Source: a virus
Taxonomy: Duplodnaviria > Heunggongvirae > Uroviricota > Caudoviricetes
DNA length: 35,920 nucleotides
Virus record (IMG/VR): IMGVR_UViG_649989946_000004
Reading direction: 5' to 3' (one strand)
How positions within the stretch are numbered: position 1 is the stretch's first letter; each line of letters starts with the position of its first letter. This document shows, one piece after another, positions 9,778 to 21,371 of the stretch. Under the pieces are notes generated by a model that was given only the letters and a program-made list of their open reading frames with translations, was not told the DNA's origin and made no database searches. Both the position numbers and the translations under genes were made by a program.

Positions 9778-11278
9778 TTAAATTGCATCTGCAAACTCTG
9801 GGGTTTTTCGCTCAGGTATAATTGATGAGTTGCTGTTGTCACTTTTTTTATTTTCATGATTACGAATAGCCAATGACTCATTAAAGTCTTTTGCGACTGC
9901 TGTCTCAATAAATTCAATTTCTGAATCAGAGTGTTTTTTAACAGCTTCTTTGATCTCATCCAGAGTAACATAGAAAAACTCTTTTCTACGATTTACAAGA
10001 TTGACTCTCTTTTTATCGAAGACATCATGTAGTTTTTTTCTAATGATGGAGCGTCCTCCGAATAAATCATGGCATGTACATCAAAAATAAAAGGAACAGA
10101 TGCATCACCGAGCTCATTTACACGGTCTTGCGGATCAAGACGTCGTGTCATGCCTATTTTATAAACATTCTCCCCAAAAGAACCTATGTTCGAAATAATA
10201 TAAACATGACCTTGTTTGGTTTGTTGTGCCATGGATAATGCTCTTTGATGCTTTGATTCAGCCTGCGACAAACTCTGTTCTAGTTCGGCAATGCGATTTT
10301 CGAGGCGCTGCTTCATGTCACCAGTAACTTTTTCCATTTCCTTTCTTGCAGCTTCAATTGCTTTTTTATAACGGCGCTCTTCTGCCTCTGCGTCTTGCAT
10401 GGCCTTTTCTATTTCTCGTTGTGCACGCTCCTCCTCTCTCATTTGTGCCCTTATTTCTGCCTGTTCTTCTTTTTCTTTCTGTTTTTGCTCACGATATTCA
10501 TGGGTAAGCCACAATTCCTCAAGTTTTTTATTGAGGTATTTAGTGTTTATATATATATGATTTTGCTCGTTTAGTTTATTTATGGCCTCAAATGCCTTTG
10601 TGATGCGTTCTTCCATTTTAGTGATGTTTTTCCACGTGCAATTGCTAATTGCAGCATCACATTCATTATTAAATGCTCTAGTAGTTAGCCTGATATTTCT
10701 GTCTGTCATTTTTTTACCCTCTGCTCGAGAGCCTTCAACAGTCCATTGGGTTGTACAATATACTGCGCCAGAGTGGGTTTTATCCCGCAGCATTAATTTC
10801 TGTTCATCCCTGATGGATTTTATTTTGTTTTTAAATTGCTCTGAATCTTCAAAATTAAAATGAGGTTCGTAAAATCCTAGTTCGGCTAGCTCAACATCTT
10901 CTGAATAAATAGAAATTTGCCTTACTAGTTTATCATATATTTCTTTCTTCTCTTTATAAGTTCTTCTTAGCTCTTGGATTTGTTTATTGATACCATCCAT
11001 TTTTTCAATGGTGTTTGTTAGTTCATTATTGGCATTTTCTTTTACTTTTAGGGATTCTTCTTTTATTATGGAGCATTCTTGCTCTGTTTTCTCAATAAGC
11101 TTCTTACATTCTTCTTCTACATTAAAATAATCTGCAAAGCGAGATTTGTATTCTTCATTTTTTTGATTGCTATCACTTAATTCTAATTGTATTTTTTGAT
11201 GCGTTTGATTGCAGCTATATAAAGAACAAGAACAACCAATAAAAATATGATTGCAAGTAATAGAGGAGTTTGAGTCAT
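9778..11278 (-). CDS. Membrane-anchored coiled-coil protein with C-terminal T5orf172/GIY-YIG-like domain (DUF4041-like architecture); reading frame interrupted twice at homopolymer runs
   Basis: ATG at 11278 encodes a TM helix (MTQTPLLLAIIFLLVVLVLYIAAIKRIKK) that stops unless the T6 run 11192-11197 is read as 7; main 435-aa ORF (9993-11300) has a long coiled coil and GHVYIISNIGSFGENVYKIGMTRRLDPQDRVNELGDASVPFIFDVHAMI; the domain continues in the -1 frame (LHDVFDKKRVNLVNRRKEFFYVTLDEIKEAVKK...) to a stop at 9778 if the T7 run 10043-10049 is read as 8. Confidence 0.65.
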
Positions 11279-11587
11279 TCGTGCTATTCCTTACGGACAA
11301 TTTAAGACGTTTTGTATTAAATCCTGTTCAATGTGTATGCGGGTGATTGCTACCGCTTACAATCTTCATAATTATCAGTTAGATAGACTCGCTAGTAAAT
11401 AATTTCATTTTTTGCAATATTCTTATTGAATATTTCAATTTATGAAATGAACTCTTTATCCTTTCAAGGCGAAAGGTTTCTTCTTCGGAAATATTTGCTC
11501 TCGTGTGACGTATAAAGACCTTTGATTTTCAAAAATCAGTAGGGAATAATATAGTTACTGTCGGCCTGAACACCCGGTGGTGGGGTT

Positions 11588-15042: not shown

Positions 15043-15127
15043 AGTCAGAGATAACAATCAACTAATACTGTTTTGTTGATTTTTGCTTGTAATTGGCGTT
15101 CTGGTCTGAGTTTTGTGGAGTAAGTTG

Positions 15128-15511
15128 ATGCGTGATATTCAGATGGTTCTTGAGCGTTGGGGAGCGTGGGCGGCTAATAATCATGAAGATGTGACCTGGT
15201 CGTCCATTGCCGCCGGTTTTAAGGGATTAATTCCTTCAAAAGTAAAATCTCGCCCACAATGTTGTGACGATGACGCGATGATCATTTGCGGGTGCATGGC
15301 CCGTCTGAAAAAGAACAACAGCGATTTGCACGATTTATTAGTAGATTATTATGTAGTCGGTATGACATTCATGTCACTGGCAGGTAAGCATTGCTGCTCT
15401 GATGGTTATATCGGGAAAAGGTTACAGAAGGCTGAGGGCATAATTGAAGGGATGTTAATGGCATTAGATATCCGGTTAGAGATGGATATCGTTGTTAATA
15501 ACTCTAATTAA
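15128..15511 (+). CDS. quuD: Late-gene antiterminator Q (QuuD-type)
   Basis: 127 aa from ATG at 15128; [31 protein letters not shown]...[16 protein letters not shown] matches DLP12 QuuD. Confidence 0.85.
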
Positions 15512-15700: not shown

Positions 15701-16783
15701 TTAGAACTGGTAAACCATACCTACAGCAACGATATCATCGGTAGCAACGCCAGATGCTTTCGTGAAATCGCTCTTATCAATCAGGTTGATTTTGTAGTCA
15801 ACAAAAGTGGACATATTTTTGTTGAAGTAATAGGTTGCACCTACATCAATATATTCAACCAGGTCCTGATCACCCCAAGCACCCAAGTCTTTTCCTTTAG
15901 ATTGCAGGTAAGCAACGGACGGACGCAGACCGAAGTCGAACTGATATTGTGCAACTACTTCGAAGTTTTGTGCTTTGTTGGCAATATGGTTATTACCAAA
16001 AACAGTCATGTTCTGGGTTTCAGAATAGGTAGTAGCCAGATAGATGTTGTTCGCATCATATTTCAGACCAGCTGCCCATACTTCAGCATTTTGACCAGAT
16101 GCATTCAGGCTGTTGTTACCGTAGATAACCTGATTATTAGTGCGGTCAGATTTAGCATAGGTTGCACCTACGCCGAAACCTTCATACTCATAAGTAGTGG
16201 AGAAACCGAAACCATCACCATTAGCTTGAGTTACGTCAGTGCGGTCATTTTTACCCTGATACTGAGCAGCAAAGTTCAGACCATCAACCAGACCAAAGAA
16301 GTCGTTGTTACGATAAGTTGCAACACCTGTGGTGCGACCAGTCATGAATACATCTGTTTGGGTCCAGGTATCGCCACCGAATTCTGGCAGAACGTCGGTC
16401 CATGCACCAATATCGTATGCTACACCGTAGTTACGGCCATAATCGATGGAGCCGTAGTCACCGAATTTCAGGCCAGCGAAGGCAAGACGGGTTTTATCTT
16501 TGGAGGAACCTTGAGATTCAGCGCGGTTGCCTTTGAATTCATATTCCCACTGACCGAAACCAGTCAGTTGATCGTTGATTTGGGTTTCACCTTTGAAGCC
16601 AAGACGGGCATAAGTAGTATCACCATCATCTGCATCATTAGAGGAGAAGTAGTGCTTAGCATTAACTTTCCCGTACAGATCCAGCTTGTTACTGTCTTTA
16701 TTATAAATTTCAGCTGCCTGAGCAGACATCGCCATCAGTACTGATGCAGCTACAGCAGAAATTGCCACTGTTAATTTTTTCAT
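15701..16783 (-). CDS. nmpC: General porin, OmpC/OmpF family (NmpC-like), apparently intact
   Basis: Signal peptide [23 protein letters not shown] then AEIYNKD... and C-terminal ...VGMVYQF typical of enterobacterial porins; located between Q and the lysis cassette as in DLP12. Confidence 0.9.
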
Positions 16784-17210
16784 CGTGAGCCCTTTTTTTG
16801 AACTATTATTAAAAAATGATGTCACTGCGCGATAAATATTCATCTAATCAATGTGATTATTTCAAGATGTAAGTTTTGGTTTCTCGTTTGATTTGTGAAG
16901 TAGATCTCTATTTTTATCTGAACTTTTTTCTATCGAATCCTATTCATGGCTCTTGGCTGAATAAAAATAAATCTATTAGCCAATTTATATTAACGGCTGT
17001 CATTTATAAGTGCTCTATAATTTGAAGGTTCAATTTAAACCGGCTAAAAATAACGCTGGAAATTATTTGTTGGTTATTTGTTGATATTTGCTTATGTATT
17101 TGTAGTGGTGTTTTCAATACTCGGTAGCATTCTCGCAAATATCATTTAGTGGTTTACGTACGTAAAAAATTGGTTATGCTGTTAAGAGTGGTTACTTCGT
17201 CACACAGCTT

Positions 17211-18430: not shown

Positions 18431-18441
18431 TGGATTTGCCC

Positions 18442-19347
18442 CTATATTTCCAGACATCTGTTATCACTTAACCCATTACAAGCCCGCTGCCGCAGATATT
18501 CCCGTGGCGAGCGATAACCCAGCGCACTATGCGGATGCCATTCGTTATAATGCTCGAACGCCTCTGCAAGGTTCTTTGCTGCCGTTAACCCGTCTGGTTT
18601 GGGCATGATACTGATGTAGTCACGCTTTATCGTTTTCACGAAGCTCTCTGCTATTCCGTTACTCTCCGGACTCCGCACCGCCGTGTTCTTCGGTTCAAGT
18701 CCCAACATCCGGGCGAACTGGCGTGTTTCATTAGCCCGGTAGCATGAACCATTATCCGTCAGCCACTCCACTGGAGACGACGGAAGATCGTTGCCGAAGC
18801 GGCGTTCCACCGCTCCCAGCATGACGTCCTGTACTGTTTCACTGTTGAAGCCGCCGGTAGTGACCGCCCAGTGCAGTGCCTCACGATCACAGCAGTCCAG
18901 CGCGAACGTGACACGCAGTCTCTCTCCGTTATCACAGCAGAACTCGAACCCGTCAGAGCACCATCGCTGATTGCTTTCTTTCACGGCCACTCTGCCTGTA
19001 TGTGCCCGTTTCGATGGCGGTACAGCAGGTTTTCGCTCAAGCAACAGCGCATTCTGGCGCATGATCCGGTAAACACGTTTGGCATTGATCGCAGGCATAC
19101 CATCAAGTTCTGCCTGTCTGCGAAGCAGCGCCCATACCCGACGATAACCATACGTGGGCAGCTCTCCGATAACATGGTGTATACGGAGAAGCACATCCGT
19201 ATCATCAGTGTGACGACTGCGGCGGCCATCCATCCAGTCATCGGTTCGTCTGAGAATGACGTGCAACTGCGCACGCGACACCCGGAGACAACGGCTGACT
19301 AAGCTTACTCCCCATCCCCGGGCAATAAGGGCGCGTGCGCTATCCAC
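18442..19347 (-). CDS. insD: IS2 transposase OrfB (InsD)
   Basis: 301-aa ORF with DDE-type integrase core; matches IS2 InsD. Confidence 0.9.
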
Positions 19348-19670
19348 TTTTTTGCCCGTCCATATTCAACGGCTTCTTTGAGGAGTTCATTTTCCATCGT
19401 TTTCTTGCCGAGCAGGCGCTGGAGTTCTTTAATCTGCTTCATGGCGGCAGCAAGTTCAGAGGCAGGAACAACCTGTTCTCCGGCGGCGACAGCAGTAAGA
19501 CTTCCTTCCTGGTATTGCTTACGCCAGAGAAATAACTGGCTGGCTGCTACACCATGTTGCCGGGCAACGAGGGAGACCGTCATCCCCGGTTCAAAGCTCT
19601 GCTGAACAATTGCGATCTTTTCCTGTGTGGTACGCCGTCTGCGTTTCTCCGGCCCTAAGACATCAATCAT
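19305..19670 (-). CDS. insC: IS2 OrfA (InsC)
   Basis: 121 aa from ATG at 19670 ([25 protein letters not shown]...), HTH regulator; overlaps insD for the usual OrfAB frameshift fusion. Confidence 0.9.
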
Positions 19671-19761
19671 CTGTTCTCCAATGACTAGTCTAAAAACTAG
19701 TATTAAGACTATCACTTATTTAAGTGATATTGGTTGTCTGGAGATTCAGGGGGCCAGTCTA

Positions 19762-19766
19762 TCACC
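19762..19766. repeat. IS2 target-site duplication, right copy (TCACC)
   Basis: See left copy. Confidence 0.8.
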
Positions 19767-20224
19767 CTTAGAAAGCGGATTGAAACCAGTGATAAAATGA
19801 TCCGAGGCTTGCAGCAATACATTCGCACGCAGTGTGTAAGATGAGCAATCTTTGCTAATTAGCCATGAAATAGATAAATATCAGGCCAACGATGATTAGT
19901 GCCAGGCATCCTAATTGGTCAGAATGGCTGGCATTTGATCGTCTTGCTCTTCTTGCAGTTGATTGGACAGCCCTCTGTCCTCGACTTCCTCTTGGCATTC
20001 CTCTCATTTATTCTCTCTCAACATTGATATTGAACTGACAGATGATAATTATTTCATGAAAGTGGTATCTCGTTGATTTGATTACGCTACATAGTCGCCG
20101 GATTTTCGCATTTATCGGCATCGGGCGGTGCAAAATTGGCATAATCGAAACGTAGAGTTTTTGGCTGACAACAGCATTAGCGGTCACCCGGAGAGTGTTG
20201 TGAACATGTTAATTACATGACGCT

Positions 20225-20545
20225 TTAGATGCATCGACATTTGATGATGCTTGTCAGACCTGTCATTTTCTTTGCTTCATTTTCAACATTGAGGAAGTTG
20301 GTTGAGCATATTTTTTGATAATCTCCAGTTGTGAATCCTGTTTTATCGATCTTGCGTTTCAAGGGATTAATCGTTTTGCAAGATGCTCTATGGATTCTGG
20401 TAAAGCGTTCGTCAGATTTATTACCTTTACCTCTGGTTCGCTTCAATGCATTGACAACATATCCGTCTGGATTATCGCCAAGCCAATTACGATAGTCTGA
20501 TTCACTCTCAGTCTGAAGGTCACTTCTGAATACCTTTATGGACAT
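20225..20545 (-). CDS. Hypothetical basic protein at the bor-equivalent locus (between spanins and cos)
   Basis: 106 aa from ATG at 20545 preceded by AGGAG; MSIKVFRSDLQTESESDYRNWLGDNPDGYVVNALKRTRGKGNKSDERFTRIHRASC...; AT-rich gene with own AT-rich upstream region; no signal peptide; family not recognised. Confidence 0.6.
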   Translation of the reverse strand: MSIKVFRSDLQTESESDYRNWLGDNPDGYVVNALKRTRGKGNKSDERFTRIHRASCKTINPLKRKIDKTGFTTGDYQKICSTNFLNVENEAKKMTGLTSIIKCRCI

Positions 20546-20679
20546 GAAGATACTCCTGTGCATTTATGGTACGAAGAAATAGCAAAAGTATTTTTACCGT
20601 AAATTGCGAATCTACAAAAGCAAAACAATGCGTAATATCAGAGTGAATATTCTGCCTTTAATGTGGGTCCTTCTGATGA

Positions 20680-20720
20680 CCTGAGCTCTCACGGGGCGGG
20701 AGCGTCGCGGAAAAAGGCTA
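20680..20720. promoter_or_regulatory. Candidate cos site (cosN-like GC-rich core)
   Basis: GGGGCGGGAGCGTCGCGG ~170 bp upstream of the small terminase gene resembles the lambda cosN core GGGCGGCGACCTCGCGG. Confidence 0.3.
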
Positions 20721-20879
20721 GTTTTTGCATTTTTATCGGCCACCATCATCTTTGCATCTTATTGATTATTAATGGTTATTTGTTTTTTGTATGTCGAATT
20801 GAGCGGTTTTTGTTCGACATCGAACGCGTTTTCTTAAAGTTGTTCGCACGATGCATGTTTAAAGCTCTCCGGAGGAAAT

Positions 20880-21371
20880 ATGGATCATGAGTTGAAAAAC
20901 TTGGTGCTGAATATTAATCAACTGGCGGCTTTATCTGGTCTGCACCGCCAGACTGTCGTGGCAAGACTGAAAAACATTCGTCCCGCTGGTGGACATGACA
21001 AACTCAAGCTATATCGGTTGACCGATATTCTGACTGAATTTATGGGGTTACCACCGCCGGTTGCTGAGGGCGAAATGGATCCACATGAACGCAAAGCCTG
21101 GTATCAGTCTGAACGTGAGCGTCTTAAGTTCGAACAGGAAACGGCACAACTCATTCCGGCCAGTGATGTCAGACGGGAGTTTGCCATCTGGGCAAAAGCG
21201 GTCGTGCAGGTGCTGGAGACATTACCGGATATTCTGGAACGTGACTGCGGCCTGCAGCCTGCCGATGTGAGCCGTGTTCAGTCCATTATTGATGATCTGC
21301 GCGATCAGATAGCCCTGCGGGTGACCGAAGCAGGTGCGGATGATGAGGAGGAATTACAGCAGGAGGAGTAA
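20880..21371 (+). CDS. Terminase small subunit
   Basis: 163-aa ORF with GGAGG SD, N-terminal HTH-like segment, acidic C-terminus; immediately precedes and overlaps the large terminase. Confidence 0.8.
   Translation: MDHELKNLVLNINQLAALSGLHRQTVVARLKNIRPAGGHDKLKLYRLTDILTEFMGLPPPVAEGEMDPHERKAWYQSERERLKFEQETAQLIPASDVRREFAIWAKAVVQVLETLPDILERDCGLQPADVSRVQSIIDDLRDQIALRVTEAGADDEEELQQEE

Follow-up and report, generated by a model that had tools for sequence, protein, structure and literature searches.

The 35,920-nucleotide (nt) stretch of viral DNA analyzed here (IMG/VR record IMGVR_UViG_649989946_000004; hereafter, the window) contains a DLP12-like prophage, and between the spanin gene and cos of this prophage lies a minus-strand gene for a basic protein of 106 amino acids (aa) (Table 1). 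The underlying open reading frame (ORF) spans 20225..20563 (112 aa), with an internal ATG at position 20545 that gives the 106-aa form ending in KCRCI. The RefSeq entry for the identical locus of Escherichia coli NT1F31 (WP_000025003.1, "hypothetical protein") corresponds exactly to this shorter form, and the same methionine serves as the start in homologues from other genera.

The length of the ORF by itself is weak evidence for a gene, because ATG-initiated ORFs of at least 106 codons arose in 98 of 5,000 shuffles of 19846-20700. The decisive evidence is conservation. Specifically, the ratio of nonsynonymous to synonymous substitution rates (dN/dS) ranged from 0.155 to 0.199 among the Raoultella-type, Citrobacter, and Klebsiella-phage copies; between these copies and the E. 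coli gene, the proportion of differing sites was 0.72 to 0.79 for synonymous sites, which are saturated, and 0.22 to 0.24 for nonsynonymous sites. A protein search returned 24 clusters of close relatives with 58 to 99% identity, nearly all of them 105 to 110 aa long, and every named cluster among them comes from Enterobacteriaceae. The ORF is thus a real gene under purifying selection, and the minus-strand gene, start codon, and Shine-Dalgarno sequence proposed in a first-pass annotation, which was made from the letters of the window alone, are borne out.

The 12-kDa protein has an isoelectric point (pI) of 9.66, with 21 lysines and arginines versus 12 aspartates and glutamates, and contains four cysteines and one histidine. 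It has no hydrophobic segment (best 19-residue Kyte-Doolittle mean, -0.03) and therefore no signal peptide, and it is predicted to be soluble and cytoplasmic; the first-pass description of a lysine/arginine-rich product without signal peptide and with a KCRCI end accordingly holds for the E. coli protein. The gene was also rightly called AT-rich: its GC content is 38.6%, versus 49.3% for the window, and the GC content of the interval 19600-20900 is 37 to 46%, with flanks of 50 to 58%.

Table 1. Features of the window from the interrupted spanin gene to the first packaging gene
Feature	Position	Strand	Basis or remark
IS2 (insC/insD), 1331 bp, inserted in Rz and not part of the moron	18431..19761	(-)	Transposase ORFs; on the uninterrupted NT1F31 prophage, the two flanks share 5 bp
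3' end (last 83 nt) of Rz-type spanin ("lysis protein") gene, left boundary of the interval	19762..19844	(+)	Aligns to the end of WP_001356226.1 in NT1F31
Unannotated 50-aa ORF	19855..20007	(-)	Coding-type substitution pattern
Spacer of 217 nt between the 106-aa gene and the small ORF	20008..20224	(-)	No intrinsic terminator found
Coding sequence of the 106-aa basic protein, stop included	20225..20545	(-)	ORF list, RefSeq annotation, homologues, dN/dS, AlphaFold2
5' flank of the 106-aa gene up to cos, expected promoter region	20546..20693	(-)	No promoter at consensus thresholds
Shine-Dalgarno sequence AGGAG	20553..20557	(-)	7 nt 5' of the ATG at 20545; read from the sequence
Start of cos, GGGGCGGGAGCG, right boundary of the cargo module	20694..20705	(+)	Genome records of phages cdtI and Tritos begin at about base 20694
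DUF1441-type small terminase gene, first packaging gene, divergent from the moron	20880..21371	(+)	RefSeq annotation of the identical locus

An accessory cassette inserted backwards in the late operon

Among 5,426 complete E. coli genomes, the gene was found in 54 (1%), always with at least 98% identity; the reference enterotoxigenic strain ETEC H10407 is one of the carriers (ETEC_RS25650). In all eight of the prophage contexts inspected, it lies between the lysis and terminase genes on the opposite strand. Within E. coli, the cassette precedes both DUF1441-type and Nu1/NohD-type packaging genes, and its copies hardly differ between the 3' end of the spanin gene and cos, where they begin to diverge (from about position 20700). 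The equivalent place is taken by homologues in Raoultella-type metagenome contigs, Citrobacter, Leclercia, Cedecea, and Klebsiella phage ST846-OXA48phi9.2, next to further types of terminase (Terminase_2, and Terminase_4 with HNH), which brings the number of flanking terminase types to at least four. A scan of IMG/VR gave 67 loci on 67 viral contigs, all of intact length except for one partial match. Within 900 bp, the longest ORF ran opposite to the homologue upstream of 60 of 66 loci and downstream of 56 of 67, and the main neighboring clusters were Terminase_2 (21 loci), a GpA-type large terminase (15 loci), a 287-aa HNH protein (10 loci), and, on the lysis side, phage lysozyme (12 loci) and Rz (4 loci).

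A moron, as reportedly defined by Hendrix and colleagues, is an autonomous accessory unit inserted between phage modules. The gene is dispensable cargo between conserved modules, being present in 54 of 5,426 genomes and replaced in DLP12 by borD, ybcV, and ylcI, and its base composition deviates from that of the window as given above. The proposal that it sits at the equivalent of the lambda bor locus is supported, since borD, ybcV, and ylcI are the contents of the Rz-to-nohD interval of DLP12. The cassette also behaves as swappable cargo in front of different terminases. The locus is best read as a self-contained accessory cassette (moron), set in reverse orientation into the late operon, with the spanin gene on one side and cos on the other. 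Antisense morons in this interval are a well-known kind of element; the cargo is not.

Lambda bor and DLP12 borD resemble the gene in that they, too, are accessory genes on the minus strand, antisense to the late operon, with Rz on one side and either cos or the small terminase gene on the other. DLP12 further resembles the window prophage in its homologous lysis module (essD/rrrD/Rz) and in a porin gene that lies antisense after Q. This shared position is all that would speak for a Bor-like envelope lipoprotein. However, Bor is an exported lipoprotein, whereas the 106-aa protein has neither signal peptide nor lipobox, is predicted to be cytoplasmic, is Cys/His-rich, and, together with its lack of a hydrophobic stretch, gave zero Pfam families at E ≤ 10, so that it does not belong to the Bor family. 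A decaying, nonfunctional ORF is equally at odds with the strong purifying selection and with the intact copies in 54 E. coli genomes and, apart from the partial match, 67 viral contigs. Sequence and selection thus exclude both of these alternatives, and we regard either as extremely improbable.

Another parallel in arrangement is taiEcA (orf63) of phi80, a tail-assembly-inhibition defense gene whose product is made in the lysogen and declines under Q-dependent late transcription (PMC11364771). Like the 106-aa gene, taiEcA lies in the interval upstream of the packaging module, antisense within the late operon; it encodes 204 aa, however, and no adjacent counter-defense gene is evident in the window. 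The two proteins do not belong to one family (BLASTP gave no alignment to TaiEcA, and hhalign of profile versus sequence gave a probability of 0.1%), and there is no homology to phi80 orf65, a 99-aa antisense gene next to cos. Tha of Staphylococcus prophages has been described in the same "noncontiguous operon" terms (PMC11087260). HepS of Gifsy-1, a HEPN-domain protein, is only a general precedent for prophage-encoded defense. The gene is a further type of cargo, beside Tai, in the lysis-to-packaging interval of lambdoid prophages, conserved across enterobacterial genera.

The same interval also collects counter-defense cargo. In Raoultella-type prophages, a Tad2-like gene (PF11195, the anti-Thoeris sponge family; contig L003, 8769-9044, and also L004-L006) lies on the late strand between the lysis and terminase genes, two genes from the homologue of the 106-aa gene.

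A conserved His/Cys domain shared with nucleases

Family searches with the 106-aa protein revealed no annotated relative: besides the negative Pfam result, NCBIfam and PADLOC gave no match, PHROGs gave one PHROG of unknown function (E = 0.37), and a profile search against PDB sequences gave zero matches at E ≤ 10. A structure prediction by AlphaFold2 from a 24-sequence alignment produced a single alpha/beta domain (predicted local distance difference test [pLDDT], 86.5; predicted template modeling score, 0.80) in the order strand-helix-strand-helix-strand-strand-helix. The check by structure prediction suggested in the first-pass annotation thus gave a confident model.

A profile search of 1.84 billion representative sequences, in turn, returned 247 relatives at E ≤ 1e-3. 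In 143 of these, the near-invariant positions are Y18, W21, G28, V30, N32, H52, C56, T72, Y76, K78, C80, C103, and C105, and all five His/Cys residues among them (H52, C56, C80, C103, and C105) are kept in 128. Taken singly, H52 is conserved in 142 of the 143, C56 and C103 in 139 each, and C105 in 136, and C80 is the only one of the five that is replaced on its own (5 sequences). The last two cysteines are spaced C-x2-C in 112 relatives and C-x-C in 23, which form the prophage subfamily. The KCRCI end noted earlier is therefore half of a conserved His/Cys zinc signature that had been overlooked. Four candidate ligands persist across the family, and the domain probably contains a structural zinc site of the His-Cys3 type, in which one zinc ion would be held by H52, C56, C103, and C105.

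The nearest approach to a described family was DUF6233 (PF19746), a model of only 59 positions and of unknown function, which gave recurrent sub-threshold matches centered on an LH(R/K)AxC motif in 8 of 83 relatives (E = 0.014 to 1) and in relative P0031. The best E-values were 0.0016 to 0.014, and the best relative scored 19 bits versus a gathering threshold of 27.6 bits. The window protein itself had no match, and membership in DUF6233 is not supported; no papers were found in the literature for the RefSeq accessions or for DUF6233. Judging by these searches, the domain constitutes an unannotated family with a conserved putative zinc signature, without a Pfam model and without a solved structural relative in the profile search of PDB sequences.

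Of the best 150 relatives, 55 are multidomain proteins, in which the putative zinc domain is usually N-terminal and sometimes duplicated. The Pfam partners in these 55 were HNH (15), HNH_2 (8), HNH_5 (2), and NOV_C (2, of the PD-(D/E)xK type), with a protein kinase, a YgjP-like metallopeptidase, DUF6998, and a helix-turn-helix (HTH) domain occurring once each. Two PADLOC models of Type IV methyl-directed restriction enzymes matched 14 and 11 of the 55, and PD-T4-6 and mad6 matched one each. The 106-aa protein is thus homologous to the N-terminal domain of HNH-fused relatives, and these relatives, with the domain placed before HNH or HNH_2, share the layout of modification-dependent nucleases such as the McrA-like HNH Type IV enzymes (PADLOC mREase_IV). 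Type IV HNH enzymes have a nuclease domain, whereas the 106-aa protein has neither HNH nor PD-(D/E)xK according to Pfam and PADLOC; its whole length is the single putative zinc domain, and it is not itself a Type IV restriction enzyme. The genomic context of one HNH-fused relative was uninformative.

Among the distant stand-alone relatives, the one in Paraburkholderia, at a prophage end, adjoins an N6_N4 methyltransferase and an integrase gene. A 45%-identical chromosomal relative of 109 aa (P0026) overlaps by 22 nt a downstream gene for a 124-aa protein without a Pfam match (L095, 4953-5327; L096, 479-853), which is possibly its operon partner; this arrangement was seen in a single lineage.

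A possible role in the lysogen

The explanation that we favor, tentatively and at less than even chances, is that the moron would be expressed in the lysogen and would provide a stand-alone module for nucleic-acid recognition, which would probably serve in phage exclusion or DNA shielding, and that convergent late transcription would silence the gene. The 106-aa protein would be produced in the lysogen, a function suggested by analogy with taiEcA, which has the same interval and orientation. Its putative zinc domain would recognize nucleic acid, perhaps foreign or modified DNA, and the nuclease-less version carried by the prophage would bind such DNA without cutting it; this non-cleaving binding might hinder superinfecting phages or shield DNA. 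On prophage induction, Q-antiterminated late transcription would run head-on through the gene and switch it off. The best argument for nucleic-acid recognition is that a variable non-catalytic domain placed before an HNH nuclease is the layout of modification-dependent enzymes.

Transcription signals of the homologues in other genera fit independent expression. Among 38 distinct flanks, 24 contain a -10-like hexamer at a distance of 30 to 37 or 51 nt from the ATG on its 5' side; six of these read TGTTATAAT, an extended -10 element. A strong stem-loop/T-run terminator follows the stop codon. In these genera, the homologue looks like an autonomous transcription unit. Many of the non-E. coli homologues also have a long conserved hairpin (GCCATTACGATGGG...CCCATGGTGATGGC) directly before the terminator (e.g., loci L021, L058, L062, L074, L080, and L084; the folding energy of the 60 nt 3' of the stop is -17 to -29 kcal/mol).

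Several observations weigh against the favored explanation. For the E. coli gene, neither a standard nor a relaxed scan of 20546-20720 revealed a sigma-70 promoter of consensus type on the minus strand, and a terminator scan found no intrinsic terminator 3' of the gene, the RNA fold of the 3' flank being no stabler than that of shuffles (z = -0.86). The basic charge is not conserved in the family, since the pI of relatives ranges from 5.1 to 9.5, which makes the basic composition, from which nucleic-acid binding had originally been proposed, a weak argument; the proposal itself is reasonable, but the nuclease fusions are better evidence for it. The PADLOC Type IV models, in turn, probably match mainly the catalytic parts of the fused relatives, because the 106-aa protein matches none of them, and in one tabulated fused member, the HNH models cover residues 93-228. 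Sensor domains fused to HNH, kinase, peptidase, or ATPase effectors can bind small molecules or proteins instead. Finally, the distant stand-alone members are orphans: one is situated at a prophage end, the other two are surrounded by housekeeping genes, and no recurrent partner gene was found in these three contexts.

The association with nucleases of Type IV appearance could also be read as a sign of anti-defense cargo, in which the stand-alone domain would be a decoy, competitor, or sponge that occupies the DNA marks targeted by Type IV nucleases with the same reader domain, or sequesters a sensor ligand, and so protects methylated DNA of the phage. The domain is indeed common to Type IV-like HNH proteins, the DNA methyltransferase gene just upstream of the holin gene is the same in all three annotated E. 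coli contexts, and the Paraburkholderia methyltransferase neighbor and the Tad2-like gene described above point in the same direction. However, methyltransferases are common in lambdoid phages, which makes their co-occurrence uninformative, and the Tad2-like gene is on the late strand rather than on that of the 106-aa homologue. Moreover, the gene runs against the late operon at a distance from the early region, a location that suits expression in the lysogen but not early anti-restriction after DNA entry, and we consider this explanation unlikely.

The position of the gene could also suit a lysogenic-conversion regulator, i.e., a small zinc-dependent DNA-binding protein that would alter host or prophage transcription and would not act on incoming phages. 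Conversion genes such as bor use this position, the same prophage has an antisense porin gene after Q, the protein is small, basic, and, by prediction, cytoplasmic, and one relative is fused to an HTH domain. Against this, no known DNA-binding fold was detected, the fusion partners are mostly nucleases and defense-type effectors rather than regulators, and the gene is confined to 1% of complete E. coli genomes; a regulatory role of this kind appears improbable.

The favored explanation can be extended to a broader proposal, which is rather doubtful in its entirety: the domain would be an undescribed zinc-stabilized fold that reads foreign nucleic acid (e.g., a base modification) and has been recruited repeatedly by HNH, PD-(D/E)xK, kinase, and other effectors, and it would occur in lambdoid prophages as a nuclease-less exclusion or shielding factor, accompanied in E. 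coli by a 50-aa tail-anchored membrane peptide (see below). The ligand of the domain, once known, could reveal a new way in which modification-dependent restriction enzymes recognize their targets, a module of use in epigenetic tools, and the domain could explain one more way in which prophages protect or reprogram their hosts.

The small ORF and other features of the prophage

The gene had been described as flanked by ~370 bp and ~150 bp of noncoding DNA. The shorter, upstream flank abuts cos, and the ~370-bp flank, which separates the 106-aa gene from the spanin gene, includes an ORF of 50 codons on the minus strand, preceded by the purine run GAGAGAGA. Its predicted product has an Arg-rich N-terminal half and a hydrophobic C terminus of ~18 residues. 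Six haplotypes, drawn from genomes of E. coli and from contigs of IMG/VR, differ at eight sites, of which seven are synonymous third positions and one changes V to F. Given six transitions and two transversions, the probability of this pattern in the frame is about 0.0013, or roughly 0.008 allowing for six frames, and the antisense frame that shares the wobble positions acquires a stop codon. The flank (19850-20220) occurs in 54 of 5,426 E. coli genomes, the same number as the 106-aa gene. On the other hand, the ORF is not annotated or reported by any gene caller, NCBIfam and Pfam gave zero families at E ≤ 10, no homologue was found in any searched collection, and the ORF is absent from the homologous loci of other genera; it matches none of the known toxin families (Hok, Ldr, Ibs, TisB, and others). 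The ORF probably encodes a genuine small membrane protein and, in E. coli, accompanies the 106-aa gene; as such, it would be an example of the small-protein genes that pipelines overlook. Its link to the 106-aa gene is positional only.

Consensus matches to promoters were found on both strands near the small ORF. On the minus strand, the spacer contains an extended -10-like site, TGaAATAAT (-35 at 20076-20071, -10 at 20053-20048), which could drive the small ORF. On the plus strand, a promoter-like site at 20024-20052 (TTGATA-17-AATTAT) lies just 5' of the small-ORF start codon and points away from it, a geometry that resembles the antisense RNAs of type I toxin-antitoxin loci. A search of 19700-20900 against Rfam returned only STnc410 at chance level (18.8 bits versus a gathering score of 50).

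These features raise the question of whether the two ORFs form a module in E. coli, with the zinc-domain protein as sensor or regulator and the tail-anchored peptide as a membrane-damaging effector of an abortive-infection or toxin-like type. The synonymous bias of the polymorphisms, the same-strand arrangement with no terminator between the ORFs, their equal frequency among the genomes, and the outward-facing plus-strand site agree with such a module. However, the haplotype sample is small, the peptide has neither homologue, family match, nor gene call, and the homologues of other genera have a terminator of their own and no small ORF, which implies that the zinc-domain protein does not need the peptide. 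We therefore hold a two-gene module to be quite unlikely.

The "spanin remnant" of the first-pass annotation is accounted for by an IS2 element that splits Rz and is flanked by a 5-bp target duplication. The IS2-Rz junction was absent from all of the complete E. coli genomes listed as the 20 best matches, and the insertion probably impairs the window prophage in the last step of lysis. Upstream, Q (15113-15511) is followed by a porin gene and then by the lysis module, which matches essD-rrrD-Rz of DLP12 at 91% identity. The porin gene (15701-16843, minus strand) is full-length (Porin_1, E = 4e-153), lies directly after Q, and runs opposite to the late operon; it corresponds to nmpC of DLP12 and represents a second conversion-type moron of this prophage.

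Elsewhere, the copy in E. coli SZQ1 lies at 152-472 of NZ_CP174001.1, at the very start of a 43,337-bp record classed as a plasmid, which could be a circularized or excised prophage or a phage-plasmid. An ORF of 435 aa with DUF4041 and MUG113 domains (9993-11300, minus strand), situated in the window prophage's early region, may be a further accessory or defense-type gene.

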